DNA of 64,000 bases from Alphaproteobacteria bacterium (GTDB taxonomy: Bacteria > Pseudomonadota > Alphaproteobacteria > UBA2966): positions 1,024,001-1,088,000 of the forward strand of contig OZ219856.1 in assembly GCA_964291395.2 (NCBI GenBank), given 5' to 3'. Made by a program: the position numbers and the translations under genes. This document shows positions 32,918-56,546 of this stretch, one piece after another. Every line of letters begins with the position of its first letter. Position 1 is the first letter of the stretch. Under the pieces are notes generated by a model. That model did no database searches, was not told the DNA's origin, and was given only the letters and a program-made list of their open reading frames with translations.

Positions 32918-33856
32918 TTACGGACTTGGTTCGGTGCGGCGTTTCGTCGTCGGTTTGGGCATGACGGTGGCGAGGGCGCCGACGAGCAGTGCGAACGCCA
33001 AGGCGTCCAGCGCCGTCATCGTTTCACCGAGCATGACCAGGCCGCCGGCGAACGCCACTCCGGGCACGGCGAGTACGGACAGCGACGCCACGATGGCGGG
33101 GACCTGCTTGATGAGAACGAAGAACCCCAGAAACCCGATGAGGTTGCATCCGAACGCGACGAAGAGGGCGGAGAGCAATGCGGTGGAGGACACGGGTCCG
33201 AACCGGTCGATCTCGGTAAGCCCCATCAGGCAGAGCGGTATCCCGCCGATCACGAACATCCATCCCGTCAGGACGAGCGGCGGGACGTGGCCCGAGGCGC
33301 TTTTGGCGGCGATGGTTCCGCACGCCCATGAGACCGCAGCCGCCAGTCCGATCAGAACGCCCAGGGAGATCCCGCCTCCGGCCGTCTGTATCCACAACAG
33401 GACCATGCCGCCGATCCCCAGCACCAAACCGATCCAGTGGCCGCGGGTGGGCCGTTCTCCCAGCACGGGAATGCCGATGATGAAGGCCCAGAGCGGCATG
33501 GTGTAGATCATGATCGAGGTCTGACCTGCCGCGATGTACAGCGTGCTGAAATTCGTCAGCACATGGGTGAGCGTGACTGTAAAGAAGCCCGTCAGAACCA
33601 CGCCCAGGCGGTATTCGCGTGGCACATGGAGCGAGTGGCCGTTGGCGCGGGCGAGTACCAGCAGGACGAGGCCCGGCACGATCCCCGCCAGGCCCCGAAA
33701 GGTGAAGATCGGGATCTCGAGCGCTGCCGCCTTCATCGTCGGATAGGACGCACCCCACAACAGGACGATGAAGATCAGCAGGACCAGTGCTCGTGCGGAC
33801 AGGCGCGACGGAGTGGGTTGCCGCGCCTCGGCGGCGGGAGGTGTCGACCTGTTCAT
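32918..33856 (-). CDS. EamA/DMT family transporter
   Basis: About 10 TM segments, LWGASYP, VLGER. Confidence 0.9.
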   Translation of the reverse strand: MNRSTPPAAEARQPTPSRLSARALVLLIFIVLLWGASYPTMKAAALEIPIFTFRGLAGIVPGLVLLVLARANGHSLHVPREYRLGVVLTGFFTVTLTHVLTNFSTLYIAAGQTSIMIYTMPLWAFIIGIPVLGERPTRGHWIGLVLGIGGMVLLWIQTAGGGISLGVLIGLAAAVSWACGTIAAKSASGHVPPLVLTGWMFVIGGIPLCLMGLTEIDRFGPVSSTALLSALFVAFGCNLIGFLGFFVLIKQVPAIVASLSVLAVPGVAFAGGLVMLGETMTALDALAFALLVGALATVMPKPTTKRRTEPSP

Positions 33857-34056
33857 GGGTCGACTCTTTCAGGGGGGTCCGGACGCCGCAAGCGTGGTGC
33901 GGGCTTGATCTACGCGCCGATCAACGGCACTGCCGCGTACCGGCCCGGCCCCGTGGACCGGGCAGGCGGGATCGTCGGTTCGAACGCAAGGCGGCGGATC
34001 GTCTATTCTTCCCGTTCGTATCGATCTCTTCGAATGCCTCTTGCGACGGATTCGCC

Positions 34057-35265
34057 ATGAACGACAGACCCACAGGGCCCCTTTCCGGCGTTCGCGTCAT
34101 CGACATCACGACGATCATTCTGGGGCCCTACGCGACCCAGCTGCTTGGAGACCTTGGCGCCGACGTTATCAAGATCGAAGCCCCGGGTGCCGGCGATCCC
34201 ATCCGCCACGCGGGTCCCAAGCGCAACGAGGGCATGGGCGGCATCTTTCTGAACGTGAATCGCAACAAACGGAGCGTCGTTCTCGATCTGAAGCAGGAAG
34301 GGGCGAAGGGAGTCTTGCGCCGCCTCGTCCCGACGGCTGACGTCTTTTTCCACAACATGCGGCCGCAGGCGATCGGGCGTCTGGGATTCGATTACGAGGC
34401 GGTCTCGGACCTGAGGTCGGATATCGTCTATTGCGGCGCGTACGGATACTCCGAAAAAGGTCCGTACGGCGCCAAGCCGGCCTACGACGATCTGATACAG
34501 GGCGCGTCGGGATTGGCGGTGCTCGGCGCGGACTCCGATGGGGCGCCGCGCTACACGCCGACCATTCTGGTGGACAAGCTCGTCGGTTTGATGGCGAGCC
34601 AAGCCATTCTCGGCGCGCTCTACCACCGGTCTCAAACGGGAGAAGGGCAGAAGGTCGAGGTGCCGATGTTCGAGACCATGACGGCTTTCATGCTGGCCGA
34701 GCACATCTATGGCCGCGCCTTCGAGCCCCCGATCGAGGGATCGGGATACGCCCGCGTCATATCCCCGCATCGCAAGCCTGCCAAAGCCAAGGACGGCTAC
34801 ATCTGTATCCTGCCGTACACCGAGGCGCAGTGGTCCGGCTTCTTCGAGATATCGGGGCGCTCGGAATTGGGCTCGGATCCGAGATTCAAGGACTATGCGT
34901 CGCGCAACAGGAACATCGATGCCTTGTACGAGATGATGGGCGAAGCGATCGCGGAGAAGACCGTCGCAGAGTGGGCGGCGCTCTGCGACAGGACCCAAAT
35001 CCCCTGGGCGCCGGTGAATACGCTGGACGACCTGTTCGTGGACGAACATCTCCGGGCGATCGGGTTCTTTCACCGTTCCACGCATCCGAGCGAGGGCGAC
35101 ACGGTTCTTCCGGAGCCGCCCGTTCGGTTCTCGGCGACACCGGCCTCGATCCACCGGCATGCGCCGCGCCATGGAGAGCACGGCGCCGAGGTGCTAAAGG
35201 AGTTGGGATACACGGAGGACGAGATCGACCAACTGGAGGAATGCGGCGCGCTTCGGGTGCCGTGA
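34057..35265 (+). CDS. CaiB/BaiF family III CoA-transferase
   Basis: GPYATQLLGDLGADVIKIE, NRNKRS, PAYDDLIQ. Confidence 0.93.
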   Translation: MNDRPTGPLSGVRVIDITTIILGPYATQLLGDLGADVIKIEAPGAGDPIRHAGPKRNEGMGGIFLNVNRNKRSVVLDLKQEGAKGVLRRLVPTADVFFHNMRPQAIGRLGFDYEAVSDLRSDIVYCGAYGYSEKGPYGAKPAYDDLIQGASGLAVLGADSDGAPRYTPTILVDKLVGLMASQAILGALYHRSQTGEGQKVEVPMFETMTAFMLAEHIYGRAFEPPIEGSGYARVISPHRKPAKAKDGYICILPYTEAQWSGFFEISGRSELGSDPRFKDYASRNRNIDALYEMMGEAIAEKTVAEWAALCDRTQIPWAPVNTLDDLFVDEHLRAIGFFHRSTHPSEGDTVLPEPPVRFSATPASIHRHAPRHGEHGAEVLKELGYTEDEIDQLEECGALRVP

Positions 35266-35630: not shown

Positions 35631-35838
35631 GTTCGCCGGAGCCGACTGTTCGCTGCAGCGCCGGGGGTCCGAGGCCGTTCGCGGAGGCCGTTGAAGTATC
35701 GGATCGTCCCGGAGGAGTTGCCTGCCCGGTAAAGAGCGTTCGGCACGTGCTATCGACCGAGGTCGTTTTGCAGAGGTGGGCTCGCCGGAATGCGTGTTCG
35801 CGGCGGAGGCCCGCGCGTTTCAAGGTAACATACCTCCA

Positions 35839-37932
35839 ATGAGCTGGCGCATCGGCGTTGACATCGGCGGCACGTTCACGGACGTGGCCGTGCTCGACGA
35901 GGTGAGCGGGCGCATCGGTATCGTCAAGACGTCGACCACGCCGCGGGACTTCGTCGCCGGCGTGGTCCACGCGCTGAAAGCGGCGATGGCGCGCCACGGC
36001 GTTCCCGCTTCGGATGTCGTTCTCCTGTCGCACGCGACCACCGTCGTGACCAACGCCATTCTCGAGGAGAAAGGTGCGAAGACCGCTCTGATCACCACGC
36101 GCGGCTTCAGAGATGTTCTCGAGCTGCGCCGTTCGGCTCGCGCGCGTCTCTATGACCGCAATCAGGAGCCGCCGGCCGTCCTCGTGCCCCGTCACAGGAG
36201 ATTCGAGATCACCGAGCGCGTCGGCGCGGACGGCGAGGTGGTGATCCCGCTCGAGGAAGATGAGCTCGACGCCATCGCCGAGGAGATCGGGAACGAAGGC
36301 GTGGAGGCGGTCGCGGTATGCCTCTTGTTCTCGTTTCTCCATGACGATCACGAACGCCGAATCGGTGCGCGGCTGCGGGCCGCATTGCCCGGCGTGCCCG
36401 TCTTCCTCTCCTGCGACGTTCTGCCCGAGTTGAAGGAATTCGAGCGTACCAGCACGACCGCCGTCTGCGCCTATGTCGGCCCCATCCTCGCGTCGTACGT
36501 GGAACGCCTGGAGCAGGCGACTCGGGAGCTGAAACTGCCGCCGCTCCACATCATGGGTTCGAGCGGCGGGTTTCTGGATGTCGCCGAAAGCATGAAGATG
36601 CCGGCCATGGCCGTGGAGTCCGGCCCCGCCGCTGGCGTCGTCGCGGCGGCCTTCATCGGCAGGCAGCTCGACGAGCCGAACCTGATCTCCTTCGACATGG
36701 GCGGCACGACCGCCAAGGCGAGCCTCATCCGTGACGGACGTGTCGAGGTGACGTCGGAGTACGAGGTCGGCGCCGATGCCAACGTCGCCCGTTGGATGCA
36801 CGGCACCGGTCACCCGATCAAGGTGCCCGTCATCGACCTTGCGGAGGTCAGCGCGGGCGGTGGCAGCATCGCGTGGATCGATTCGGGCGGCGGCATGCAC
36901 GTCGGCCCCCGGAGCGCCGGTGCCGAGCCGGGCCCCGTTTGCTACGGGCAGGGCGGGCGGGAGCCCACGGTCACCGACTGCGACCTGATCCTCGGGTACT
37001 TGAATCCGGAATACTTTCTGGGTGGCGAGCTGATCCTCGACGCGGCGGCGGCCGAAGCCGCCTTGCGGGAGAGAGTCGCCGAACCCCTTGGTCTCCCGCT
37101 TCTCGAAGCCGCGGCCGGCGTCGTCGCGGTGGTGGACCACAACATGGCGGAGGCGCTGCGCATCGTTTCCGTCGAACGCGGCCACGATCCGCGCGACTTC
37201 TGCCTCGTCGCGTTCGGAGGCGCGGGGCCGGTGCACGCGGTCAGCCTCGCCCGGGAGCTCGACATCCCGAGGGTCATCGTGCCGCCTATCCCGGGCGGCT
37301 TCTCCGCCTTGGGTTTGGTCGCCACCGACCTGCGCCGGGAATACGTCCGTACCTTCTACAAGCGCCTCGACGAGGTGCCTCCGGATGAGATGTCGGAGGC
37401 ATTGTCGGCGATGGAGGAGATGGGGCGCGACATGCTGGTCGGCGCCGGCGTACCGGAGGTCAGGCGCAAGCTGCAACGGGCCGCGGATGTGCGATACACA
37501 CGGCAGGCCTATGAGCTTACCGTACCGATCGAGGACGGCGATATCGGTGCCGCGCATCTGGCGAAGCTGGCGGAGGCATTCCACGCCCGCCACCGCGCCA
37601 CCTATGGACACGACAGCCCCGACGAGCCGCTGCAGGTCGTCAATCTACGAGTCAGCGCCATCGGCGTTCTGGAGAGCCCGGTTCTGAAAGCGGGCGGTCG
37701 CGGGAGCGGCGCCATTGACGCCGCCCGGCGTGGGACGCGCCAAGTATACTTCAAGAATTTCGGCACAGTCTCGTGCGGGATCTTCGATCGAGACCGCCTG
37801 CCGTCGCGCGGCGATGTACCGGGGCCCGCCATCATCGAGGCGGCGGACACGACAATCGTCGTGCCTCTCGGATGGCGGGCGGGGATCGATCAGAAGGGGT
37901 TTCTCATCATGGAGAGAAGCGGCGATGGCTGA
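35839..37932 (+). CDS. hydantoinase/5-oxoprolinase subunit A
   Basis: GVDIGGTFTD, TTVVTNA, SGPAAG, DMGGTT, GGGSIA. Confidence 0.94.
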   Translation: MSWRIGVDIGGTFTDVAVLDEVSGRIGIVKTSTTPRDFVAGVVHALKAAMARHGVPASDVVLLSHATTVVTNAILEEKGAKTALITTRGFRDVLELRRSARARLYDRNQEPPAVLVPRHRRFEITERVGADGEVVIPLEEDELDAIAEEIGNEGVEAVAVCLLFSFLHDDHERRIGARLRAALPGVPVFLSCDVLPELKEFERTSTTAVCAYVGPILASYVERLEQATRELKLPPLHIMGSSGGFLDVAESMKMPAMAVESGPAAGVVAAAFIGRQLDEPNLISFDMGGTTAKASLIRDGRVEVTSEYEVGADANVARWMHGTGHPIKVPVIDLAEVSAGGGSIAWIDSGGGMHVGPRSAGAEPGPVCYGQGGREPTVTDCDLILGYLNPEYFLGGELILDAAAAEAALRERVAEPLGLPLLEAAAGVVAVVDHNMAEALRIVSVERGHDPRDFCLVAFGGAGPVHAVSLARELDIPRVIVPPIPGGFSALGLVATDLRREYVRTFYKRLDEVPPDEMSEALSAMEEMGRDMLVGAGVPEVRRKLQRAADVRYTRQAYELTVPIEDGDIGAAHLAKLAEAFHARHRATYGHDSPDEPLQVVNLRVSAIGVLESPVLKAGGRGSGAIDAARRGTRQVYFKNFGTVSCGIFDRDRLPSRGDVPGPAIIEAADTTIVVPLGWRAGIDQKGFLIMERSGDG

Positions 37933-39634
37933 CACCGTACCCGCTGCGTTCGCGGACAACGATCCGGCCACGTTCGAAGTGGTCAAGAACAGCCTCTACT
38001 CGATAGCCGCGGAAATGCGCGTCGTCCTGTCGAAAACCGCCTATTCCCCCATCCTGAAGTCGGCGGGCGATTTCTCGTGCGGCATATTCGACGTGCGAGG
38101 CGACATGGTGGCGCAAGGGCCGGACCTGCCCATGCATCTCGGCTCGATGCCGCTGGCCGTCAAGGCCGTCATCCAGGCCTGGGAAGAGGTCGCGCCGGGG
38201 GACGTGTTCATCCACAACGATCCATACTTCGGCGGCTCGCATCTTCCGGACGTCAACGTGGTGACGCCTGCGTTCGCGGATGGACGTTTGCTGGGATTCG
38301 TCTGCCTGCGGGCTCATTGGCCAGATGTCGGCGGCGGCACGCCCGGCAGCTACGGCACCGAGACCGAGATATTCGGCGAGGGCCTGCGTCTGCCTCCGGT
38401 CCGGCTCTATCGCCGGGGCGAACCCCTGCGCGAGGTCGAGGACATCATTTTTGCCAACGTGCGGACCCCGGACGAGGGGCGGGGCAACCTTCGCGCCCAG
38501 GTCGGCGCGAATCGTCGTGCGGTGACCCGACTCGAGGGGCTGGCTCGCCGCCACGGGCCGGATCGCCTGTTGCGCATCATGCAGGGCGTCATGGACCACT
38601 CCGAGATGATGATGCGTCAGGCTCTGGCGGAGTTGCCCGACGGCGAAGGGAGCTTCGAGGACTTCTGCGACGGCGACGGCATCCTCGAGCCGGGTGAGAC
38701 CGAAGACTCACCGTTCACCATCAGGCTGCACGTGAAGAAGAGCGGTGACGAACTCGCGGTCGATTTCACCGGAACCGATCCGGTGGTGCGGGGCCCCATG
38801 AACTCACCGCTGGCCGTGACGGCGTCGGGAGTCTATACCGCCGTGAAGACCGTGGCCGATTCGGACGCGCTGATTCCTCCCAATTCGGGCTGCTGGCGTC
38901 CGATCTCCGTGCAGGCCGAGACCGGGACCGTCGTCAACGCCACGCTTCCCGCGCCCGTGGTGTATGCAAACCACGAAATCGCTCACCGGGTGTGCGACAT
39001 GGTGTATATGGCGATGTCCGGCTTCGCGCCGAACAACGTCATGGCATGCTCCCAGGGAACGTCGGCCATCCTCGCCATGGGCGGCGTCGATCGGCGTACC
39101 GGCAATCGCTACGTCAACTACGAGGTCGTCAAGGGCGGTTTTGGCGCTCGCCCCGGCAAGGACGGTATCAACGCCATCGCTGCCAGCGTCGCCAACACGG
39201 CGAACACGCCGGTCGAGGTCGTGGAAATGAGTTTCCCGCTGCGGGTGGACCGCTACGAGCTGATTCCCGACTCGGGCGGAGCCGGGGAATATCGCGGAGG
39301 TCTCGCGGCCCGCCGCGTGTGGAAGATCCTCGACCACACGGCCCGGGCCACGGTCTGCTGCGAGCGATCCAAATCGCCGCCGTTCGGTCTGTTCGAGGGC
39401 AAGGCGGGTGCGCCTGCGCGCATCTACCTGATCGAGGCGGACGGCACCCGGCGCGACCTCAACAGCAAGGAGCATTTCATCGCGTCCGAGGACTCCGAGA
39501 TCTGGTACGAGGTTCCCGGATCGGGTGGGTTCGGTCCGCCCTCGGAACGCGATCCGGAAAAGGTTCGGGCCGACGTCCGCGACGGCTACGTCAGCGTCGA
39601 GTCCGCCAGGCGCGACTACGGGGTGGATGTCTGA
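37925..39634 (+). CDS. hydantoinase/5-oxoprolinase subunit B
   Basis: DFSCG, HLGS, NDPYFGGSHLPD, HWPDVGG, NTPVE, SGGAG. Confidence 0.94.
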   Translation: MADTVPAAFADNDPATFEVVKNSLYSIAAEMRVVLSKTAYSPILKSAGDFSCGIFDVRGDMVAQGPDLPMHLGSMPLAVKAVIQAWEEVAPGDVFIHNDPYFGGSHLPDVNVVTPAFADGRLLGFVCLRAHWPDVGGGTPGSYGTETEIFGEGLRLPPVRLYRRGEPLREVEDIIFANVRTPDEGRGNLRAQVGANRRAVTRLEGLARRHGPDRLLRIMQGVMDHSEMMMRQALAELPDGEGSFEDFCDGDGILEPGETEDSPFTIRLHVKKSGDELAVDFTGTDPVVRGPMNSPLAVTASGVYTAVKTVADSDALIPPNSGCWRPISVQAETGTVVNATLPAPVVYANHEIAHRVCDMVYMAMSGFAPNNVMACSQGTSAILAMGGVDRRTGNRYVNYEVVKGGFGARPGKDGINAIAASVANTANTPVEVVEMSFPLRVDRYELIPDSGGAGEYRGGLAARRVWKILDHTARATVCCERSKSPPFGLFEGKAGAPARIYLIEADGTRRDLNSKEHFIASEDSEIWYEVPGSGGFGPPSERDPEKVRADVRDGYVSVESARRDYGVDV

Positions 39635-39707: not shown

Positions 39708-40598
39708 CTATTCGCTCCCGTCATAGCGGTCGTCCCACAACGTCATCAGCGCCGGACTTTCCCAGGTGCCCCTTCCGCGCGCGTGCACAGCGGCGTTGAA
39801 TTGGGCGATGAGCGCGGTGATCGGGAGCGCCACGCCGAATCGTCGTGCCTCGTTGAGACAGAGACCCAGGTGGGTCATGAGGGAGTCGATGCCGCCGTCC
39901 ACGGGATCGAGCTCGCCGTCGATCATGCGTTGGATTCTGTGATCGAACCACCAGGATTGTGCCGAGCCCTTGCCGAGCAGTGAAAAAGCCCTGTCCAGAT
40001 CGAGGCCGGATTTGCGGGCGAATGCCACGCCCTCGGCGAGACCCTGCATGTTGGCCGAAATCAGGATCTGGTTGACCATCTTCGTGAGCTGACCGTGCCC
40101 GCTCGGTCCAATGTGATCGGCGGTCCGTGAGTAGGCGGTGAGGTAAGGTTTGGCCGCTGCCACGCCTGCCTCGGTGCCGCCGATCATGACGGCCAGCTCT
40201 CCGGCGTTTGCCAGCTCCTCCGCTCCCGAGACCGGCGCGTCCAGGTATTGGATGCCGCGCTCCGCGGCCGCCGCGGCCGATGCCTCCGCGGCCTGCGCCG
40301 TCATCGTGTTGTGATCGACGAACACGCTGCCGTCGGCCATCGTCTGAAAGGCGCCCGCCGTTCCCCGGGTCACGTCCCGGGACTCGTCGTCGCCCCCGAC
40401 ACAAGTGGCCACGTAGCGGGCGCCTTCCGCGGCCTCCGCCGCCGTGCGGGCGGCCCGCCCGCCGTGCTCGGCGACGAACGCGTCCGCCTTCTCGGAGACG
40501 ATGTCGTGAACCGTCACCTCGTAACCCGCGTTGGCGAGGTGCATGGCCATGGGCCTGCCCATCCGGCCGATACCGATAAACGCAACCTTGTCTGCCAA
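39708..40598 (-). CDS. beta-hydroxyacid dehydrogenase
   Basis: AFIGIGRMG, LDAPVSG, KMVNQ; TTG start after GGAGGT. Confidence 0.9.
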   Translation of the reverse strand: MADKVAFIGIGRMGRPMAMHLANAGYEVTVHDIVSEKADAFVAEHGGRAARTAAEAAEGARYVATCVGGDDESRDVTRGTAGAFQTMADGSVFVDHNTMTAQAAEASAAAAAERGIQYLDAPVSGAEELANAGELAVMIGGTEAGVAAAKPYLTAYSRTADHIGPSGHGQLTKMVNQILISANMQGLAEGVAFARKSGLDLDRAFSLLGKGSAQSWWFDHRIQRMIDGELDPVDGGIDSLMTHLGLCLNEARRFGVALPITALIAQFNAAVHARGRGTWESPALMTLWDDRYDGSE

Positions 40599-40623
40599 TG
40601 GATCACCTCCGGAAGGCTGATAT

Positions 40624-41412
40624 TCAGGTCTTGCGGAAATCCGGTGTCCGCTTTTCCAGGAAGGCGCTCGCGCCCTCATCTCGTTCGCCGCTCGCCAGGC
40701 ACAGCGCGAAGAGTTTGCGCTCGTATTCGATGCCTGCGGTCAGGTCGGCGTCCGGACTCGCCAGAACGGCATCACGGGCGGCCATCAGAGAGACGGGACC
40801 CTTGGCCTGCCATTTGCGGCAGATTTCGCGGCCGGCGTCCATGAGTCCCTCATCTTCGTGCACGGCATTGACCAACCCGATGACGAGTGCCTCGTCGGCG
40901 GATATCGGCTCGCCCAGGGTGACCATCGCCATGGCCCGTCCGAGTCCGACCATGCGGGTCAATCGCTGGGTGCCGCCGCTGCCCGGAATGACGCCGAGGT
41001 TGATCTCGGGCAGGCCGAGCCTCGCCGAGCGTGCCGCGATGCGAAGCGTGCAGGCCAGTGCGATCTCGAGACCGGCGCCAAGACAGTGGCCGTTGACGCA
41101 GGCAAGTGTCGGCAGACGCATGGTTTCCAACAGACGTGGAAGTTCACGGCGCAGGCCGGATTTCGTGGAGAGTTCGCTCGTTACCGTGCGTTCCTTCAGT
41201 TCGTTGACGTCGGCACCCGCGGAGAAGGCCCTGGGGCCGTCGCCGGTCAGGATGACGCAATCCGCCTCGCCGCCGTCTTCCAGGGAATGCAGGGCGTTCA
41301 TGCATTCCTCCCGCATGGGCAGGCTCATGGCATTGTACCGTTCGGGGTCCGAGAGGGTGATGGTCGCTATGCGGTCTTCGATATCGACCGAAATTCGGGT
41401 GTAGGTCGCCAT
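40624..41412 (-). CDS. enoyl-CoA hydratase
   Basis: AFSAGAD, GAGLE, PEINLGVIPGSGGTQRL; both catalytic Glu present. Confidence 0.93.
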   Translation of the reverse strand: MATYTRISVDIEDRIATITLSDPERYNAMSLPMREECMNALHSLEDGGEADCVILTGDGPRAFSAGADVNELKERTVTSELSTKSGLRRELPRLLETMRLPTLACVNGHCLGAGLEIALACTLRIAARSARLGLPEINLGVIPGSGGTQRLTRMVGLGRAMAMVTLGEPISADEALVIGLVNAVHEDEGLMDAGREICRKWQAKGPVSLMAARDAVLASPDADLTAGIEYERKLFALCLASGERDEGASAFLEKRTPDFRKT

Positions 41413-41431
41413 GATCTCTCCACTTCGGGCT

Positions 41432-42997
41432 CTAAGCTGACGCCGAGTCGAGCAGGCTGGCCGCAAGTTCCGCGCGAACGGTCTTGCCGCTCGCGTTCCG
41501 CGGGATCGTCGCTACCAGCTCGAGTCGGCGGGGTTTCTTGTAATCTGCCAATTCCCGCGCGCAGTGGGACTGAAGGTCCGCCAGATCGGGGTGTTCTCCG
41601 TGGCGTGGGATGACGCACGCCGTGACGATCTGGCCCCACTTGGCATCGGGCAAGCCCACGACGGCGCAATCGAATACGGCGGGATGGCACATCAACACCT
41701 GCTCGATCTCTGCGGGGTGGATGTTGACGCCCCCGCTGATGATGATCTCCTTCAGCCGGCCGACGAGGTAGAGGTATCCGTCCTCGTCGAGATAACCGAG
41801 GTCGCCGGTGTGGAACCATCCGTCCGTGAACGCGGCCGCGGTGGCTTCGGAGTCGTTCAGGTACTCGCGCATGACCGAGGGGTTGAGACACCGGATTTCG
41901 CCGACCTCGCCGGTCGGCAGCGCCGCGCCATCCTCTCCTGCGATCCGGATCTCGACCCCGGCGAACGGCGTTCCGACGGACGCCGGCTTGCGCCGTTGAT
42001 CCGCGGGCTCCAGGACCGTCATGCTGTTCGATTCCGTGGAGCCGTAGTAGTCGAACAGCCGGGGCGTCATGCGCTTCAGCACCTTTTCCTTGATCGCCGG
42101 TTGAAGAGGTGATCCGCAGGTCACAAGGCGGGACAGGCTCTCCAGGTTTCGGGGGGCGGAACCGCGTTCCAGTTCATCGAGCACCATGACCAGCACGGTG
42201 GGCACGACGAGGCTCGACGTCACCCGTTCGCTGGTGACGAGCGCCAGGTACTCGGCGGGATCGAAGTCGCGCTGGATGTGCACGCGTCCCCCGGTGTGCA
42301 GATGCATCAGCGTGAACGTGAGACCCGCCGAATGCACCTGGGGCATGACACCGAGATAGGTGTCTTCGGTGCCGAGGCCGTAAACGTCGATCGCCTTGTG
42401 GATCCAGACCATGCGGGCACGGTGGGTGGAGAGCGCGCCCTTGGGTTGGCCGGTCGTGCCCGAGGTGAACATCAGGCTGAAGTCGTCGTCCGGCGAAACG
42501 TCGGGGAGTGCGCCGGGCAACGACTCGCACAGTCGATCGAATGTCGCGTCGCCGGCGCCTCCGTCTGGATCGATGGAAACGATTTCCGGGAGGTCGATTT
42601 TCGCACGGGCGACCGCACGCTCGATCGTGTCCGTCCGGTCGACGGTGGTAACGAGGGTGCGGGGGCGGGCGAGGGCCAGAAGGCCCGCGATTTCACCTTC
42701 CTTCAGGCGCGGGTTGATGGGCGAGAAAATCCCGCCTGCCCGCGCGACCGCCAGGACGATGACCACGTAGGCAATGCAGTTGGGGAGGTAGGCGGAGACG
42801 ACGTCCCCCTTGCGCACGCCGAGATTTATAAAGCCCGCGGCAAGGCCGCTGGCTCGGCGATCGAGGTCGCCGAAGGTCAATGAGGCGTTTCCGTCGGTCA
42901 GGGCAACCTTGCCGGGCGCGGCGCGGGCGACCGCCGTGCCGATCCGGCCGACACGGAGGTCTTCGTTTCCTCGAGACCGTTCAGCCCCGGTCGCCAT
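41432..42997 (-). CDS. acyl-CoA ligase (ANL/AMP-binding)
   Basis: FTSGTTGQPKG, YGSTE, HTGDLG, SGGVNI, PRNASGK. Confidence 0.94.
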   Translation of the reverse strand: MATGAERSRGNEDLRVGRIGTAVARAAPGKVALTDGNASLTFGDLDRRASGLAAGFINLGVRKGDVVSAYLPNCIAYVVIVLAVARAGGIFSPINPRLKEGEIAGLLALARPRTLVTTVDRTDTIERAVARAKIDLPEIVSIDPDGGAGDATFDRLCESLPGALPDVSPDDDFSLMFTSGTTGQPKGALSTHRARMVWIHKAIDVYGLGTEDTYLGVMPQVHSAGLTFTLMHLHTGGRVHIQRDFDPAEYLALVTSERVTSSLVVPTVLVMVLDELERGSAPRNLESLSRLVTCGSPLQPAIKEKVLKRMTPRLFDYYGSTESNSMTVLEPADQRRKPASVGTPFAGVEIRIAGEDGAALPTGEVGEIRCLNPSVMREYLNDSEATAAAFTDGWFHTGDLGYLDEDGYLYLVGRLKEIIISGGVNIHPAEIEQVLMCHPAVFDCAVVGLPDAKWGQIVTACVIPRHGEHPDLADLQSHCARELADYKKPRRLELVATIPRNASGKTVRAELAASLLDSASA

Positions 42998-43706
42998 GAT
43001 CCGCAATGAGGGACTTGAGCTGTTCCAGAGCGGCGGACAAGGGTATTTCGGCGGGACAGACGCTTTCGGCGCGGACGATCGCGTCCCCGCCCAAGCTGTG
43101 CACTTCCGCGGCGATTTCCTTCAGGCGCGCCGCCCCGGCGCCGTCCCGTTCGTCGAGCGCGAGCATGAGCAGACGATTGAGGGCGGCCGGTCCGACACCG
43201 TCGTCGCCCTTCGCCTCATCGGCAATGGCGGAGACGCAGGCGCCGCAGGTGATGCAGCCGTTCTGCGCCTCGATCGTGGTGCGTTCGTTGGAGGCGGGCG
43301 GTATGACCGGCAGATCCCGGCGATCGGGCTCCCGCGGACGAAGGGCGGCTTCGGCGCGGGCCAGGCCATCGAAAAAGGGCCGCATGTCGGCGATCAGGTC
43401 GTGTCGCGTCGGCAGGCCCCTCAACGGTTCGATACGCAGAGTTCCACCGTCGGTTTCGCCGAGAGAGGTCTGGCACGCCAGGGCTTCCCGGCCGTTGATC
43501 ACGACGGCGCAGGCTCCGCACATACCGACACGGCAGGCGTAACGGAACCCGAGGGTGGGGTCCTCGTTCTCGCGCGCCCAGTTCAAGGCGTCGAGAACGC
43601 GTGCGTGCGCGGATCGCACTGGCACTTCGAAATGGCTCCGGTCCGCCGGATTCGTCCGGGCGACCTCGAGGGTGACGGTGGCGTTCGATCCGGCGATGTC
43701 GGTCAT
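42981..43706 (-). CDS. SdhB/FrdB-like iron-sulfur subunit with reduced Cys content
   Basis: FRYACRVGMCGAC...C, CITCGAC, GPAAL, VCP. Confidence 0.88.
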   Translation of the reverse strand: MTDIAGSNATVTLEVARTNPADRSHFEVPVRSAHARVLDALNWARENEDPTLGFRYACRVGMCGACAVVINGREALACQTSLGETDGGTLRIEPLRGLPTRHDLIADMRPFFDGLARAEAALRPREPDRRDLPVIPPASNERTTIEAQNGCITCGACVSAIADEAKGDDGVGPAALNRLLMLALDERDGAGAARLKEIAAEVHSLGGDAIVRAESVCPAEIPLSAALEQLKSLIADHGDRG

Positions 43707-45484
43707 GCGGGGATGAGGGTCTCGCCCCGCAGGGCCTCGGGCGTACGGCGGGTGAAGTCGACGGGGCGGGGTTCGGTATTCGGTTTTCCGTCAGCGGTGC
43801 GCCGCTGGACGAAGTTGACGAGGAAGCGGTCGTCGGAGTCGGGAACGTCCTCGCGGAAGTGGCTGCCCCGGCTCTCTTCCCGGGCGCTCGCCGCCGTGCC
43901 GATGAGACGCGCCACGTCGATCAGGTTCTCCGCGTCCAGGCGTTCCTGCAGGTCGGGATTTGCGCCGCGCCTCGCCGGCATGGCCAAGGCGCCGAGTTCA
44001 CCTTCGATGGCGTCCAGTTCATCGGCTGCCCGTGCCAAACCGTCTGCATCACGGAGAATGCCCAGGTAGTCCCAGGCCAGGGCGCGCAGCCGGTTCTTCA
44101 GTTTGAAGGGCTGTCCCGTGATCTCGCCGGACCCGTCCAGACGGACACGGGCCGGGCCGAGCCGGTCCTTGTCGAAGGGCGCACGCGTCCCTTCTCTCGC
44201 GTGACGGGCGATCGACTCACCGGCGATGGCCCCGAACACCATCGATTCAGCCACTCCATTGCCGCCGAGGCGGTTGGCGCCGTGGACGCCGCCGGCGTCC
44301 TCGCCCGCGGCGAACAACCCGTCCACGGTTGTGCGGCAGTCGGTGTCGATAAGGATGCCGCCCATTTGGAAGTGCGCCGTGGGGGTCACCTCGATCAGGT
44401 CCGTTGCCATGTCGGTGCCGACCGTCAGGCAGCGGGCATACATGCCTGGCGAGGACTTGAGCAGGAACTCCTTGCCGAGATGCCGGACGTCGAGATAGAT
44501 GCCTTCGCTGGCCGTACCGCGACCGGCGCGAATCTCCATCATGCCGCTCCGCGAGACGCGGTCGCGGGTCGAGCGTTCCATCTTCTCGGGATCGTAGCGC
44601 TCCATGTAGCGCTCGTGATTGGCGTTGAGCAGGTGGCCGCCGGCGCCCCGCAGCCCTTCCTCGAGGACCGTCCCGTTCAGCAGCGAACCATCCACGATGA
44701 GTCCCGTGGGATGGAATTGCATCATCTCCATGTCGACGAATTCGGCGCCGGCCCGGTACGCCATCGCCAGCCCGTCTCCCGACTTCTCGAGCGAAGCCGC
44801 GGTGATGCGGTAGAGAGGGGCGGCCCCGCCCGTCGCCAGGAGGACGGCGGTGGCGTGGGCGGTGATGAGCTCGCCGCTGTGATGGTCGAGCAACAGCGCG
44901 CCGGCCACCGTTCGACCCGAGGCATCCAGCAGCAGGTCGATTCCGCGAACCTCGTTGAGCAGCTCGATGTCGCGAACGAGGACCTGTTCCGAAAGGCGGC
45001 TGATGATCTCGATTCCGGTGAGGTCGCCGCAGTGGATGGTGCGGTTGAACGATTGGCCGGCAAGCGCTCGCTGGTGAATGGTGCCGTCGGCGTTGCGGTC
45101 GAAGGTGCATCCGAAGGAGTTCTCCATCTCGAAAACGCGCTCGGGTGCCTGCGTGACCAGGGTCCAGGCAAGCTCCTGATTGTTGATCAGGTTGCCGCCC
45201 CGGATGGTGTCGTCGTAGTGCTTGTCGACCGAATCGTCTTCGTGCAGGACGACGTTGTAGCCGCCCTGAACCATGCGCGTGCAGCCGCTCTTGCCGAACA
45301 GGCCCTTGCTGGCCAAAACGATATCGAGGTCGGGCGCGGAGTCGCTCGCGTGAATCGCCGCGAACAGGGCGGCGCCGCCGCCGCCGATGATCAGGACGTC
45401 ACAGGTCAGGGATTGCACGTGGGTCGCTCGGCGATAAGGGGCGTCTGGATCGAGACTGACGGCACGCCGGGAGTCATAGACCAT
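43703..45484 (-). CDS. SdhA/FrdA-family flavoprotein
   Basis: IIGGGGAA, QFHPTG, E.LRG.GG, HFQMGG, HGANRLGGNG, REESRGSH. Confidence 0.92.
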   Translation of the reverse strand: MVYDSRRAVSLDPDAPYRRATHVQSLTCDVLIIGGGGAALFAAIHASDSAPDLDIVLASKGLFGKSGCTRMVQGGYNVVLHEDDSVDKHYDDTIRGGNLINNQELAWTLVTQAPERVFEMENSFGCTFDRNADGTIHQRALAGQSFNRTIHCGDLTGIEIISRLSEQVLVRDIELLNEVRGIDLLLDASGRTVAGALLLDHHSGELITAHATAVLLATGGAAPLYRITAASLEKSGDGLAMAYRAGAEFVDMEMMQFHPTGLIVDGSLLNGTVLEEGLRGAGGHLLNANHERYMERYDPEKMERSTRDRVSRSGMMEIRAGRGTASEGIYLDVRHLGKEFLLKSSPGMYARCLTVGTDMATDLIEVTPTAHFQMGGILIDTDCRTTVDGLFAAGEDAGGVHGANRLGGNGVAESMVFGAIAGESIARHAREGTRAPFDKDRLGPARVRLDGSGEITGQPFKLKNRLRALAWDYLGILRDADGLARAADELDAIEGELGALAMPARRGANPDLQERLDAENLIDVARLIGTAASAREESRGSHFREDVPDSDDRFLVNFVQRRTADGKPNTEPRPVDFTRRTPEALRGETLIPA

Positions 45485-46850
45485 CGGCGAGGTCTGACAA
45501 GGCGCGGTCGACCCCTTCCACGATGTAATCGACGTCGTCGCTGGTCGTGATGAGGGGGGGCAGGATCGGGATCACGCCGTCCGCGGCTCGCGTCAATAAG
45601 CCGTGGCTATCGAGGAGAGCCGTGATCTTGTCGCTGACGCCCATGGCTGCCGGAAACCGCTCCCGCGTCTCCCGGTCCTTCACCAGTTCGACCGCGGCGA
45701 ACAGTCCCTTGCCGCCCCGGATGTCGCCGACGAAAGGATGGCGATAGAGCACCTGAAGGCGTTCGAACAGATACTGCCCCATCTTCGCCGAGTTCTCGAC
45801 CAGGTTCTCTTCCTCGATGATCTTGAGGTTGGCGAGCGCCGCGGCGCAGGCGATCGGGTGACCGCCATAGGTATAGAGATGGCGGAACTTCTCGTCCTCG
45901 CCGCCCAGGAACGTATCGGCGACCTCCTTGCGCGCAATCGCGCCGGCGGCGGGGAGATAGCCGCTGCTCAACTGCTTGGCCATGGTCGTGATGTCGGGCT
46001 GTACGTCCCAGTGCATGCTGGCGAACCACTTGCCCGTTCGCCCGTATCCGGTGACCACCTCGTCCATGATCATCAATACGCCGAAGCGATCGCAGATCTC
46101 GCGGATGGTGGGCCAATAGTCGTCGTGAGGAATGTAGACGCCGCCGGTGATCGACATGGGCTCGCCGATGAAGGCGGCTACCGTCTCGGGTCCCTCGTCC
46201 TCGATGACGCGTTCGACGTCGCGCGCGCATTCGAGCGTGCACGAGCCGTTCTCCGCGCAGAGCGAACAGCGGTACTCGTTGGGCTGGGTCACGTGAAAGT
46301 TGCCGGGTTGCAGCGGACCGTAGTCCTCGGGCGCCGCGATACCGCCGCCGCCCGCGGCCATCGTCGCGTGAGTGCCGCCATGGTACGAGCCGGCTCGGCT
46401 GACGACCTTGTAACGGCCGGCGTCGCCCCGGATCTTGTGGTACTTCTTGGCGATCTTGAGAGCGACTTCGTTCGACTCGGCGCCGCCGTTGGTCAGAAAC
46501 ACCCGAGAGCCCTTGTCGGGCGCGAGGCTGGCGATTTTGGCCGAGACTCGGATGGTATTGGGATTCGTGCCTGCCCAGGGGTTCGACGTGATTCCCTGCA
46601 TGGCCTCGTGGACGGCGTCCGCGATCTCCTTGCGGCCATAGCCAACCGCCTGCAGCCACATCCCGGACATCATGTCGAAGACTCTTCGGCCTTCGATGTC
46701 GGTGAGCCAGCAACCCTCGCCGCTTTCGTAGATCTTCAGCGTCTCCGGCGTCTGGGCGAAGTCGTTCATCTGGTGGAACGGGAGCCACAGATGATCGATC
46801 GCCATCCGGCGCAGGTCTTCATGCGACTGTTCGTTTTCGCGTCCGGTCAT
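45474..46850 (-). CDS. class III PLP aminotransferase (omega-amine type)
   Basis: GGAESNE, SYHG, DEVVTGYGRTG, TMAKQLSSGY, YTYGGHP. Confidence 0.93.
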   Translation of the reverse strand: MTGRENEQSHEDLRRMAIDHLWLPFHQMNDFAQTPETLKIYESGEGCWLTDIEGRRVFDMMSGMWLQAVGYGRKEIADAVHEAMQGITSNPWAGTNPNTIRVSAKIASLAPDKGSRVFLTNGGAESNEVALKIAKKYHKIRGDAGRYKVVSRAGSYHGGTHATMAAGGGGIAAPEDYGPLQPGNFHVTQPNEYRCSLCAENGSCTLECARDVERVIEDEGPETVAAFIGEPMSITGGVYIPHDDYWPTIREICDRFGVLMIMDEVVTGYGRTGKWFASMHWDVQPDITTMAKQLSSGYLPAAGAIARKEVADTFLGGEDEKFRHLYTYGGHPIACAAALANLKIIEEENLVENSAKMGQYLFERLQVLYRHPFVGDIRGGKGLFAAVELVKDRETRERFPAAMGVSDKITALLDSHGLLTRAADGVIPILPPLITTSDDVDYIVEGVDRALSDLADGL

Positions 46851-46969
46851 GTCGTTGGCTCCCTGAGGAAATACGTTGAGCGCGCGGCTCCGGCAAACAT
46901 ACCAGATACCCCTCCGGTCTTTCCCCCGCGCTCGCCACCGATGGTGCCGGGAGGGGGAGTAACGATTCG

Positions 46970-48352
46970 TCAGGAGGCGAGCACGGCGTCGGCACGTTCG
47001 CGCGCGGCGGACGCGCGCTGCGGGTCGCCCAGAGCCTCCAGCGTTTCGGCGTACTTGAGCCAATTCCCGCGACTGTTGGGTTTCTCGGCGATCCGTTCGG
47101 CCAGCAGCGTCCGCGCGAGGCCAAGGCGCCTGCTCCGGATCGCCGATTCGATCAGCACCTGGGCGAAGATGTCGCGTTGCGCGTGGCTGCCGCCGACGTG
47201 GGCGAGGTCGTAGCGCAAGGGCAGCAGGCCATCGACCACGGCGTCATGGTTATCCTTGGCGAAGTCGAGCAGGGCCTGACAGATCGGGATCGTCGTCGAC
47301 TCCATGGTCGCGGCGGCGAAGTTGTCGGGCGTCTTGGCAAAAGCATGCAGCGACGCCAACAGCTTCTCGGCGGCGTCGTAGCGCTTGTCGCCCGCCAGCG
47401 CCATCATCGTGTGGGTGTCGGTGAAGGCGAGGACATGATCGTCCACGTGCGCCTCCATGGCATCCGCCAAGGGCTTCCAGCGGTCGCCCACGTCGACGCC
47501 GAGGAGGTCGAGGCGCAGCAGCATGGAGGCGCCGTTCTGGACGTCGAGATAGAAGTCCCATGCCTCGGGTTTGACGGAGCGGTCGAACAGCGTGAGCACG
47601 TCGTCGTAGTCGCCTGCCTCGACCGAATACATGGTCAGGTGCCACCAGAGATGGCCTTTGAAGGGATTGCGGTCCTCCCAGGCGTCCGCCGGGTAATCCA
47701 GCCACTGCATCCCCTCGCGCAGGCGGCCCTGCATCTCGAGGACGTGGGCGACCGCGTGGATCGCCCAGAGGTCGTCCGGGTTGGCCTCGACGGCCCGGCG
47801 CCCGAATTCCTCGGCCCGCGCGTACTCGCCGCATTCCTCCAGGCCGAAGGCGTACATGCCCTGGACGCTGCCGTAGCCGGGCACGGAGTCGTCCCACTGG
47901 TCGATGACCCGGGCGACGCCGTCGCGGAGGTCCTGCGCGCGGCCCATCCAGAAGGAATTGTAATGCTGCAAGCGCAGCGCCAGCAGGTCATGGGGATGTT
48001 CCCGGAGGATGCCGTCCCAGACGGCGCAGGCCGACGTCAGGTCGCCGCGGGACCAGGCCCTGAGCGCGTCCACGTGGGCGGCTTCCCGGCTCGTGACCTT
48101 GCCGACGCCCGCTTCGGCGGCAGCGAGGCTTTCCTCGATCTTCGGCTCCACCGCGGTCGTTCCGAACAGATTGAACAGGTAGCCCTTGAAGCACTGCCCC
48201 ATGACGAAGTCGGGATCCGCTCCGAGCATCCGCTTGATGGCGTCTCCGACCCCCGCCCGGTAGTCCAGGTACTGCGCCATCGTCTCCTTGAAGCCCTCCA
48301 CGGCGTCGGCGCTGTCGGTGGTCAGGGTGAGGCCGCGTTCGTCGCTGTACAT
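46970..48352 (-). CDS. TTC38-like tetratricopeptide repeat protein
   Basis: AFGLEE, WAIHAVAHVLEM, HLWWH, GGSHAQRD. Confidence 0.88.
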   Translation of the reverse strand: MYSDERGLTLTTDSADAVEGFKETMAQYLDYRAGVGDAIKRMLGADPDFVMGQCFKGYLFNLFGTTAVEPKIEESLAAAEAGVGKVTSREAAHVDALRAWSRGDLTSACAVWDGILREHPHDLLALRLQHYNSFWMGRAQDLRDGVARVIDQWDDSVPGYGSVQGMYAFGLEECGEYARAEEFGRRAVEANPDDLWAIHAVAHVLEMQGRLREGMQWLDYPADAWEDRNPFKGHLWWHLTMYSVEAGDYDDVLTLFDRSVKPEAWDFYLDVQNGASMLLRLDLLGVDVGDRWKPLADAMEAHVDDHVLAFTDTHTMMALAGDKRYDAAEKLLASLHAFAKTPDNFAAATMESTTIPICQALLDFAKDNHDAVVDGLLPLRYDLAHVGGSHAQRDIFAQVLIESAIRSRRLGLARTLLAERIAEKPNSRGNWLKYAETLEALGDPQRASAARERADAVLAS

Positions 48353-48463: not shown

Positions 48464-48793
48464 CTATGAGTCGCCCCCACCCTCCAGGCGGACGTAGATC
48501 TTCCCGTTTTCGACCTTGGTGGCGTAGGTGTCGAGGGCGACGGAGACCGGTGCGCCTTTCGGCTTGCCGGTGGGAATGTGGAACCGCCCCTGATGGACCG
48601 GGCACTCGATGATGTCGTCGATCACGATCCCCTCGGAAAGGAAGGCGAAGGCATGGGTGCAGACGTTCTCTGTGGCATAGAACTCCCCCTTCACGTTGTA
48701 GACGGCCACGGCGGTGCCCTCGACGTTGACGCCGAGAACGTCCTCTTCCTCGATATCGTCGGTCGATGCGACCAGATGCCATTCTTCGGCCAT
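48464..48793 (-). CDS. Rieske [2Fe-2S] ferredoxin (MocE-like)
   Basis: CTH...CPVHQGRF. Confidence 0.93.
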   Translation of the reverse strand: MAEEWHLVASTDDIEEEDVLGVNVEGTAVAVYNVKGEFYATENVCTHAFAFLSEGIVIDDIIECPVHQGRFHIPTGKPKGAPVSVALDTYATKVENGKIYVRLEGGGDS

Positions 48794-48829: not shown

Positions 48830-49834
48830 TCAGATGGACTGGATGAGGCGGAACCGGAACCTTCGTTCCAAGTGGTCGCGCAGGACGTCCCGCTGGACCG
48901 CCCAATACCCCTTGTCGACGGGGTTCATCTCGTGACCCACCTCGGCGTGCAGCGCGGGCAGGGCGTGGAACGGAACCGACGGAGCCAGATGGTGCTCGCA
49001 ATGATAGGGCATGTTCCAGCAGAGGAACCGGGTCAGGGGGTCGGTCTTCACGGTGCGGGCGTAGGTCCGGAGATCGAGCTTCCCTTCCGTGCAGCCGGTA
49101 TGGTCGGCGACTCGGAGGGCCCGCGCCACGGGCACGCCGATGACCGTGGGGATGGCCCAGTAGATGGCGACGGCCCAGGTCTCGAGGCCGACGCTGACGA
49201 CGGCGAGGCCCACGTAAATCGCCAGCATGACGCGGGCCTCGAAGAAGATCTTCGGCAACTGGTCCTCGGGCACGAACTGGCGGTTGAACGGGCGAATCCG
49301 GCCCATGGAATGGCGCAGGATCCAGCCGATGTTCTTGATCCACAGTTGGGTGGCCGTGACGTAGTAGACATAGTCCATCCACGACGAGGGACTCGGCAGC
49401 ACGTATTGCGGGTCTTTGTCCATTTCCTGGGCATGGGTGTGATGGCCGGTATGGTCGTAGCGGAAATACGTGGGCGGCCACACGATCAGGATGCCCGTGA
49501 TCCAGTGCACGGTCTCGTTGAGCCAGCGGGTGCGGAAGGCGGTGCCGTGGCTGCACTCGTGCATCGGCGCGAACAGGTGCCCCAGCATGACGCCGTGCAG
49601 CAACATCGCCGGAATCAGCCAGCCGGTCCCCGTGGCCAGATACACCAGATATCCGGTCCCGAAGATGATCGACATGTGTCCGCCGAGATGGATCAGGCCG
49701 TGGCGGTCGGTGCGCTTGGTGAAGGGCTTGAGCCGTCCGCGCGAGATGATCTCCCGCTGCGCCGCCAAGAGCTTCGCATTGGCCTCGGGGCTGGTCAGCT
49801 TTTGGGTCGAGGGGTCGGCGGTTGCGGCTTCCAA
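48830..49834 (-). CDS. fatty-acid-desaturase-family di-iron enzyme (MocD-like)
   Basis: His boxes HECSH, HTGHH and WNMPYHCEHH; PFHALP. Confidence 0.9.
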   Translation of the reverse strand: MEAATADPSTQKLTSPEANAKLLAAQREIISRGRLKPFTKRTDRHGLIHLGGHMSIIFGTGYLVYLATGTGWLIPAMLLHGVMLGHLFAPMHECSHGTAFRTRWLNETVHWITGILIVWPPTYFRYDHTGHHTHAQEMDKDPQYVLPSPSSWMDYVYYVTATQLWIKNIGWILRHSMGRIRPFNRQFVPEDQLPKIFFEARVMLAIYVGLAVVSVGLETWAVAIYWAIPTVIGVPVARALRVADHTGCTEGKLDLRTYARTVKTDPLTRFLCWNMPYHCEHHLAPSVPFHALPALHAEVGHEMNPVDKGYWAVQRDVLRDHLERRFRFRLIQSI

Positions 49835-49989
49835 TGTGGTGTCCTTTCGCTAAACTCCCGGCGAATTTTTTTCACCGGAGCGGCGCTCGAACCTAGCAGC
49901 GGCGATCCACGTTCTCAAGCGATCCCAGGCGTATGGGGCGATTCGCATGGACGGGTTCGGGCGCCGTGACGACATGTCCCAGGGAGGCG

Positions 49990-56355: not shown

Positions 56356-56546
56356 GGCAGGGTAGCGAAGATGGCCGGTCAGCCTGCCCCGACGCGCTTC
56401 GAAATCAAAGTAGTTCACATATACCGTCAAATTTACAGTAAAAAGTCACTGACAGTCTCTTGAGGGGGTGTTTTTCATGTTGTATCATGGAATTTCAGGG
56501 GCTTCAGGTTTTTGGCTTCGTTTTTCAGTCAGGATCATCAAAATTC

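Follow-up and report, generated by a model that had tools for sequence, protein, structure and literature searches.

A succinate dehydrogenase-type iron-sulfur subunit lacking its [3Fe-4S] ligands in a catabolic operon of a sponge-associated alphaproteobacterial genus

The window analysed here, a stretch of 64,000 nucleotides (contig OZ219856.1, positions 1,024,001 to 1,088,000) from an alphaproteobacterium of the GTDB lineage UBA2966, carries two overlapping genes that encode an SdhA/FrdA-like flavoprotein and an SdhB-like iron-sulfur subunit within a catabolic operon (Table 1). The SdhB-like subunit retains the cysteines of two iron-sulfur clusters and has lost the three ligands of the third, the [3Fe-4S] cluster. 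The pair probably constitutes a soluble, anchorless dehydrogenase of the SdhAB/FrdAB type, derived from a membrane-bound, quinone-linked four-subunit ancestor. A soluble two-cluster enzyme had been proposed in an earlier sequence-only reading of the window. It stands as the best reading because all genomes of the genus share the loss and purifying selection acts on the gene, and the association of the loss with absent anchor genes points in the same direction.

Cluster ligands of the SdhB-like subunit

The only cysteines of the SdhB-like protein are residues 58, 63, 66, 78, 151, 154, 157, and 217. The first four complete the N-terminal [2Fe-2S] motif, Cx4CxxC...C. The second motif, CxxCxxCxxxCP, is incomplete, with Ile161 replacing the fourth cysteine, and the third, CxxxxxCxxxCP, has lost its first two cysteines and keeps only Cys217-Pro218. 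These positions were assigned from HMMER alignments with the solved chains 2bs2_B and 1e7p_B (Wolinella succinogenes), 1kf6_B (Escherichia coli FrdB), and 6lum_B, which matched with E-values from 1e-26 to 6e-22. Ile161 stands in the place of the fourth cysteine of motif 2 because CITCGACVSAI aligns on CIECGCCIAAC and CINCGLCYAAC of the solved FrdB/SdhB chains. Similarly, the first two cysteines of motif 3 are lost, since SLGGDAIVRAESVCP of the SdhB-like protein aligns on FGCMTLLACHDVCP and VWSCTFVGYCSEVCP of these chains. The description given by the sequence-only reading, with intact [2Fe-2S] ligands, a second motif without its fourth cysteine, and a third motif keeping only its last one, is borne out by these alignments. 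Following the textbook assignment for complex II, we take the eight retained cysteines to be the ligands of the [2Fe-2S] and [4Fe-4S] clusters and the three missing ones to be those of the [3Fe-4S] cluster. The Glu-Trp pair that follows the first [3Fe-4S] cysteine in relatives with the full cysteine set is also gone. The canonical SdhB of the same genome keeps all of its cysteines (CILCACCSTSCP ... CHTIMNCTKTCP).

The family assignments are consistent with a divergent SdhB. The N-terminal domain matches Pfam Fer2_3 at 87.6 bits (cut-off 27), and the Pfam scan of the protein returned no 4Fe-4S dicluster family, whereas many homologs with the full cysteine set match one. Among the NCBIfam models, the protein scores above the cut-off of TIGR00384 dhsB (144.4 bits against 88) and falls under that of every equivalog and PRK model, for example PRK05950 (145 against 228). 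In the AlphaFold (AF2) model, which has a mean confidence (pLDDT) of 76.6, the full SdhB fold is predicted to be kept, and the model superimposes on the FrdB/SdhB chains over its whole length with TM scores of 0.71–0.74.

To place the loss among homologs, 409 sequences were collected at E ≤ 1e-5, and the best 120 of the 409 were aligned. The ten closest of these 120 (P0001–P0010, 67–96% identity) all lack the three cysteines, and they include the orthologs of the five other genomes of the genus. An ortholog with the same three-cysteine loss is found in all five of these genomes (69–78% identity), while a search of six other genomes of the family returned a single match, at a paralog level of 40% identity. 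Within the genus, the ratio of non-synonymous to synonymous substitution rates (dN/dS) is 0.12–0.45 for the whole gene and 0.09–0.37 for the [2Fe-2S] domain; in the 19-codon segment that formerly held two of the [3Fe-4S] ligands it ranges from 0.16 to 3.4 in a small sample. The SdhB-like gene is under purifying selection. The three-cysteine loss is not strain decay, a possibility for which the sequence-only reading had proposed an alignment of homologs, and it is shared by the ten closest homologs and the whole genus.

A quick IQ-TREE tree was built from 142 ingroup rows, leaving out P0010 (a fragment of 147 amino acids); the state counts exclude OUT_L024, which was poorly trimmed and has a branch length of 10. 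The eight retained cysteines are invariant in all 142 rows, and the three lost positions are cysteine in 110, 88, and 94 rows, respectively. Since eight positions are fixed and the three missing ones vary, the ligand pattern is not due to chance. All three [3Fe-4S] cysteines are present in 84 rows. In the other 58 rows the set is incomplete, with none left in 29, one in 18, and two in 11. The tree requires at least five changes between the full and lost states and 11 changes in cysteine count. Counted singly, the three columns account for 5, 4, and 7 changes, with a wide variety of replacing residues. The neighbours of the lost ligands follow the same pattern. The Trp two positions after the first cysteine and the His one position after the second are present in 84 of 84 full-cysteine rows; in the 58 loss rows, the His is left in four, and Trp falls outside the six most frequent letters. 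From full-cysteine to loss rows, column entropy rises from 0.48 to 1.44 over residues 148–170 and from 0.89 to 2.34 over residues 198–216. Relaxed conservation is confined to these two segments, which surround the lost cluster.

The loss of three cofactor ligands and the near-neutral segment around them could also be expected of an SdhB-like gene that is decaying and has no function. This is scarcely credible, given that all six genomes of the genus preserve an intact reading frame, that the whole-gene dN/dS lies in the range given above, and that the eight other cysteines do not vary. The gene further overlaps both of its neighbours in a compact operon, and RNA-library contigs map to it.

Membrane anchors and the third cluster in orthologous operons

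The window genes were searched by tblastn against 80 genome loci (L-codes below denote loci). Twelve loci, L009–L020, form the first ortholog group, in which SdhB is 46–77% and SdhA 64–85% identical to the window proteins and the gene order is sdhA, a gap, sdhB, acyl-CoA synthetase, and enoyl-CoA hydratase. A metagenome scan added at least six orthologous loci (L089–L094), of which L094 was dropped from the cysteine count because its sdhB ends before the motifs. In L010, L011, L012, L014, and L015, the gap between sdhA and sdhB measures approximately 700–800 nucleotides (nt) and contains two open reading frames (ORFs) of 91–133 amino acids with two to three hydrophobic spans each, only one of them being called in L014. 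Those of L010 and L012 match Pfam Sdh_cyt at 40–49 bits, against a cut-off of 25.8. In the window operon, the Pfam search found no Sdh_cyt ORF, and sdhA and sdhB overlap directly.

The state of the third cluster follows the presence of anchors. All nine anchored loci (L010, L011, L012, L014, L015, and L089–L092) keep the three [3Fe-4S] cysteines, and 13 of the 14 anchorless loci have lost one to three of them. Among the anchorless loci, none of the three is left in the seven of a single genus (the window, L009, and L170–L174) or in L016, L018, L020, and L093; L013 keeps one, L019 two, and L017 all three. The suggestion of the sequence-only reading that the loss fits the absence of sdhCD is thus supported by both sets of loci. 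In L020, from an alphaproteobacterial metagenome-assembled genome (MAG), a gene for a 153-amino-acid cytochrome c (12973–13434) follows sdhB, with the same orientation, at a distance of approximately 4 kb; it was seen in that locus only.

The anchored orthologs occur in Polynucleobacter, Usitatibacter, and other Burkholderiales MAGs, with SdhB 46–56% and SdhA 64–68% identical to the window proteins. They share with the window the flavoprotein motifs and the downstream synthetase and hydratase, and differ in having two Sdh_cyt anchors, the three [3Fe-4S] cysteines, and the motifs C-E-W and R-C-H. Their operon runs IclR-sdhA-sdhC-sdhD-sdhB-synthetase-hydratase-PrpD-family. In the low-GC loci L012, L089, and L090, it reads IclR-sdhA-sdhC-sdhD-sdhB-synthetase-crotonase-MmgE/PrpD-crotonase. 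The window contains neither the PrpD-family gene nor the second crotonase gene of these beta-proteobacterial operons. No characterisation of the anchored Burkholderiales operon was found in the literature searched. Because the orthologous operons carry Sdh_cyt anchors, the ancestor would have been a membrane-bound, quinone-type enzyme that already resided in a catabolic operon.

On this basis, a stepwise origin of the soluble pair can be proposed. The ancestor would have been a four-subunit quinone-linked enzyme encoded in an operon of the order sdhA-sdhC-sdhD-sdhB-acyl-CoA synthetase-enoyl-CoA hydratase. The two anchor genes may have been lost first, leaving the [3Fe-4S] cluster and the adjacent Trp and His without a role and free to decay, while the FAD (flavin adenine dinucleotide), [2Fe-2S], and [4Fe-4S] sites would have stayed under selection. 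In the present enzyme, the flavoprotein would desaturate a succinate-like acid to a fumarate-like product, which the synthetase would activate and the crotonase would then hydrate. Electrons would pass from FAD through [2Fe-2S] and [4Fe-4S] to a soluble acceptor in place of quinone.

Several points weigh against this account. L017, which has no anchors between sdhA and sdhB, keeps all three cysteines; its anchors may lie elsewhere, because the contig is only 5.1 kb long and starts inside sdhA. Anchor state requires only three changes on the tree, which leaves two to three independent pairs; all of them point the expected way, with p = 0.5 in a sign test. Close kin stand on both sides of the comparison, namely L012, L089, L090, and L091 among the anchored loci and the seven loci of the window's genus among the anchorless ones. 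The association between anchors and cysteines is accordingly consistent and not statistically established. The tree itself was built on all columns, including the three of the trait, and the Pfam check of the anchors covered L010, L012, and the paralogous operon L002 described below, and anchors at the other loci were recognised from their hydrophobicity and from clusters in blastp. The loss rows show no newly conserved position of the kind expected at a new docking surface. A Pfam search of the anchorless loci for a shared acceptor gene found nothing that recurs; the neighbours there include a thiamine pyrophosphate enzyme, a sensor kinase, a polyphosphate kinase and phosphatase, and aldehyde dehydrogenases. 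Sequence is the sole basis on which we infer the solubility and cluster content of the pair, and likewise its substrate class, reaction direction, and acceptor.

The source genome (G000; 4.16 Mb, 98.1% complete) contains three SdhB-type genes, and one of them offers a possible source of anchors. Besides the canonical enzyme (L001), a paralogous operon, L002 (sdhB-sdhC-sdhD-sdhA; G000 C1:582985-586208), encodes two anchors (C1:583749-584428) that score 37 and 47 bits against Pfam Sdh_cyt. The flavoprotein of L002 shares 50% identity with that of the window and bears the same two unusual motifs, which are described in the next section. Docking of the window pair on anchors encoded elsewhere, such as these SdhC/SdhD proteins or those of the canonical enzyme, is nevertheless very unlikely, since the link between [4Fe-4S] and the quinone site has been lost with the third cluster and its neighbouring Trp and His, the surface region around that cluster shows relaxed conservation, and the paralog has an SdhB of its own that keeps all cysteines. 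The two genes that follow the L002 sdhA (327 and 219 amino acids, to C1:587881) are, judged by eye, putative subunits of an Fe-S hydro-lyase of the fumarase/tartrate-dehydratase type. Loci of the L002 type are common in Alpha- and Betaproteobacteria.

The flavoprotein and its relation to known enzymes

The flavoprotein belongs to the same superfamily as its complex II counterparts, with Pfam matches to FAD_binding_2 (248 bits) and Succ_DH_flav_C (77 bits). Its substrate site agrees in part with the dicarboxylate site. The His/Arg set is kept, with equivalents of His232, Arg287, His355, and Arg390 (E. coli FrdA numbering), and Glu occupies the position of Thr244 in VLEEGLRG. Two substitutions set the protein apart. 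The first lies in residues 65–75, where the alignment pairs KSGCTRMVQGG with RSHTVAAEGG of E. coli FrdA (1kf6_A) and TRSHTVAAQGG of the canonical SdhA of the same genome, so that a Cys stands in for the covalent FAD-binding His. In residues 273–283 (VLEEGLRGAGG), a Glu takes the position of the active-site Thr. Both replacements are unchanged in all 14 aligned sequences of the flavoprotein subfamily. With no His at this position, covalent binding of the FAD is unlikely. Taken together, the substitutions suggest that FAD is non-covalent or differently linked and that the substrate is other than plain succinate.

Anchored and anchorless orthologs alike share the motifs QFHPTGL, RSTRDRVS, TAHFQMGG, and HGANRLGGN. 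The only motif differences between the two kinds are two conservative changes, in L010 and L015, which leave the marker and catalytic residues unaltered. Because these motifs are nearly identical, the flavin chemistry is probably the same in the anchored and anchorless forms, and only the outlet for electrons would differ.

Comparison with complex II (E. coli SdhABCD and FrdABCD, W. succinogenes FrdABC) reveals a common core of two subunits, comprising an FAD_binding_2 flavoprotein that has the His/Arg set of the dicarboxylate site and a subunit of the SdhB fold in which the ligands of [2Fe-2S] and [4Fe-4S] are present. The iron-sulfur subunit matches its complex II counterparts at E-values of 1e-26 to 4e-20, with the TM scores given above. 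Unlike complex II, the window pair has no adjoining anchor genes, lacks the [3Fe-4S] ligands with the Trp and His, carries Cys for the covalent-FAD His and Glu for the active-site Thr, and is encoded in a catabolic operon instead of among tricarboxylic acid cycle genes. The predicted enzyme thus fails three defining features of complex II: the anchors, the [3Fe-4S] ligands, and the FAD-binding His. Methanogens have a soluble thiol:fumarate reductase, TfrAB, which uses neither quinone nor anchors, and TfrA is the best NCBIfam match of the window flavoprotein. An identity with TfrAB was rejected, as both subunits score below the cut-offs (574.9 bits against 718 for TfrA and 107.7 against 385 for TfrB). 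Furthermore, the TfrB model is 488 positions long with an extra C-terminal half, and the window subunit matches positions 3–220 only.

Soluble relatives of SdhA bear on another reading, in which the iron-sulfur subunit is a structural relic with two idle clusters, and the flavin is reoxidised directly by O2 or a small acceptor, as in L-aspartate oxidase. The absence of a conserved acceptor gene from the anchorless loci and a probably non-covalent FAD are compatible with such a relic, and structural roles of iron-sulfur clusters are known in other proteins. The constraint on the subunit makes it a quite unlikely explanation: the eight cysteines are invariant even in the 58 rows with lost [3Fe-4S] ligands, and the dN/dS of the [2Fe-2S] domain indicates more conservation than a scaffold usually needs. 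Soluble SdhA homologs that lack an iron-sulfur subunit do exist; L-aspartate oxidase NadB, yeast Osm1, and Shewanella flavocytochrome c3 belong to this flavoprotein superfamily, are soluble, and have neither a quinone half-reaction nor any SdhB-type subunit (PMC10238741). The window pair differs from them in keeping an iron-sulfur subunit with two of the three clusters.

The operon and a candidate electron acceptor

Nine genes, from the desaturase-like to the 3-hydroxyisobutyrate dehydrogenase-like gene, lie on one strand with overlaps or gaps of no more than approximately 120 nt (Table 1), and their order is repeated in the same-genus locus L009 (tblastn). The acyl-CoA synthetase gene directly downstream of sdhB has a tblastn match of 50–82% in all 12 loci of the first ortholog group. 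The enoyl-CoA hydratase gene that follows is matched in ten of them, the other two ending at a contig edge. Among the loci examined by tblastn, the 3-hydroxyisobutyrate dehydrogenase-like gene is kept only in L009. The true start of the aminotransferase gene is probably 3' of the listed TTG, because its family matches begin at residues 76–108. In the sponge metatranscriptome library X1, contigs fall on every gene of the operon, 15 of 20 at an identity of at least 99%, and one spans the junction of the Rieske and desaturase genes; the coral library X2 holds a relative at 95–99% identity. These libraries lend weak support to expression, because DNA can occur in them, and the contigs do not prove a single transcript.

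Table 1. Positions of the SdhAB pair, the remaining operon genes, and flanking features in the window
Feature	Position	Strand	Remarks
SdhB-like iron-sulfur subunit	42981..43706	minus	241-amino-acid ORF; [2Fe-2S] and [4Fe-4S] ligands kept, [3Fe-4S] ligands lost
Four [2Fe-2S] cysteines, CRVGMCGAC...C	43473..43535	minus	codons of residues 58-78
CITCGACVSAI, three [4Fe-4S] cysteines, then Ile161	43224..43256	minus	codons of residues 151-161
HSLGGDAIVRAESVCP	43053..43100	minus	codons 203-218; two [3Fe-4S] cysteines and adjacent His gone, Cys217-Pro218 kept
SdhA/FrdA-like flavoprotein	43703..45484	minus	593 amino acids; overlaps sdhB by 4 nt
Membrane di-iron FA_desaturase-family (MocD-like) oxygenase, first operon gene	48830..49834	minus	Pfam FA_desaturase, 130 bits
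Small soluble Rieske-type ferredoxin	48464..48793	minus	109 amino acids; Pfam Rieske, 71 bits
Tetratricopeptide repeat (TPR) protein	46970..48352	minus	460 amino acids; no NCBIfam match
Class-III (omega) aminotransferase	45474..47063	minus	Pfam Aminotran_3, 321 bits
Acyl-CoA synthetase (AMP-binding)	41432..43006	minus	Pfam
Enoyl-CoA hydratase (crotonase)	40624..41466	minus	Pfam ECH_1, 209 bits
3-Hydroxyisobutyrate/tartronate-semialdehyde-reductase-like dehydrogenase, last gene	39708..40679	minus	Pfam NAD_binding_2 and NAD_binding_11
Choline-sulfatase equivalog	49933..51552		divergent from the operon; TIGR03417, 649.6 bits against 433; also adjoins the operon in L009
LigXa-like Rieske oxygenase	28510..30075		flank of the operon
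Glutamine-synthetase-family protein	30153..31619		flank of the operon
Family III CoA-transferase	33787..35265		family recurs near the orthologous operons L010 and L014
Two long ORFs, putative hydantoinase/oxoprolinase A and B	35776..39634		assigned by eye
Acyl-CoA dehydrogenase	51594..53027		flank of the operon
Fic/DOC-domain protein	56460..58100		546 amino acids

The operon opens with two genes that have homologs in MocDEF-type oxygenase systems, which combine an FA_desaturase oxygenase, a Rieske ferredoxin, and a Pyr_redox_2/Reductase_C reductase. Unlike in MocDEF, the reductase is absent from the window operon and from the six genomes of the genus. The Reductase_C profile has no match in any of these genomes (97–100% complete), and a scan of 20 ORFs lying between 27 and 58 kb in the window turned up no reductase gene. 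The nearest desaturase homologs outside the genus, in L214 (51%) and L215 (46%), are followed by a Rieske gene and a Pyr_redox_2/Reductase_C gene, and the TPR gene of the window occupies the place of this reductase, directly after the Rieske gene. The sequence-only reading was thus right in calling MocF missing. A TPR homolog of 36% identity is located approximately 6 kb from a desaturase homolog in another genome (L219). The window ferredoxin scores below the NCBIfam cut-offs of AndAb, its best match (101.9 against 150), and of the MocE family, TIGR02377 (87.8 against 136.15), and its motifs, CTH...CPVH, come without the extra cysteine pair of high-potential Rieske proteins.

The two-cluster SdhAB might accordingly pass electrons from [4Fe-4S] to the operon's Rieske ferredoxin and on to the MocD-like di-iron oxygenase, in place of a MocF-type NAD(P)H:ferredoxin reductase. 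Such a route, which the sequence-only reading had proposed, is in keeping with the shared nine-gene unit and its repetition in L009, with the reductase that the outside relatives carry and the genus lacks, with the reductase-free region around the operon, and with the loss by SdhAB of its normal outlet. These observations uphold the genomic setting of the proposal and do not extend to the acceptor role, for which we consider the ferredoxin a doubtful candidate. Six anchorless loci outside the genus (L013 and L016–L020), several of them on short contigs, have no tblastn match to the Rieske or desaturase genes in the available sequence, which implies that the loss of anchors and cluster is independent of a Rieske partner. 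Matches to SdhA and SdhB are likewise absent from all ten loci examined around desaturase homologs in other genomes. Oxygenase-type Rieske ferredoxins typically have potentials of about −150 mV, against +30 mV for succinate/fumarate; by these values, electron transfer from a succinate-type couple to a low-potential-looking ferredoxin would run uphill. Co-folding of the SdhB-like protein with the ferredoxin gave a score of 0.01 (mark 0.32), which counts neither for nor against binding.

The oxygenase may also be supplied in trans. The genome has 69 Rieske-domain matches, mostly in frames of 340–550 amino acids, the size of oxygenases, and only two NAD_binding_1 reductases. One of the two is a Fer2-FAD_binding_6-NAD_binding_1 reductase of the FNR (ferredoxin-NADP reductase) type, which is directly followed by another small Rieske ferredoxin and an oxygenase and could serve the operon from elsewhere in the genome; the FNR-type reductase is located at G000 C1:660999-662042. 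MocD-like homologs are found in 67 of 401 genomes of the class, with five matches in the window's genome. No Rieske ferredoxin tblastn match lies within approximately 9 kb of the four other paralogs. With so many Rieske matches and five MocD-like genes for so few reductases, electron supply in trans must be common, and it forms the obvious alternative to SdhAB as the donor. The four further MocD-like paralogs (G000 C1:1533180-1534079, C1:1649638-1650528, C1:2496184-2497074, and C2:58407-59270) are 38–49% identical to that of the window; examples of Rieske-related loci are C1:1456269-1459886 and C1:1858018-1859458.

Neither a natural SdhB without [3Fe-4S] ligands nor this operon was found in the literature searched, whose coverage excluded subscription journals. 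The electron supply of the genome's many oxygenases is a question in itself, given the ratio of Rieske matches to NAD_binding_1 reductases. If the Rieske link were true, it would provide a drive for the oxygenase that is independent of NAD(P)H, and a respiratory-type SdhAB would have been rewired in this sponge-associated genus as a substrate-driven electron supply for the operon's monooxygenase, an outcome that we regard as rather improbable. For a soluble two-cluster SdhAB in general, the question raised is what takes electrons from the terminal [4Fe-4S] cluster. The findings also carry a warning for annotation, in that a "succinate dehydrogenase iron-sulfur subunit" encoded in a catabolic operon may not be respiratory. 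Complex II is usually described with a fixed three-cluster wire that ends at quinone, and this family offers a natural comparison, in which one catalytic core occurs with and without anchors. In it, the third cluster and its neighbours appear dispensable after loss of the membrane partner, and the first two clusters are retained in every case.

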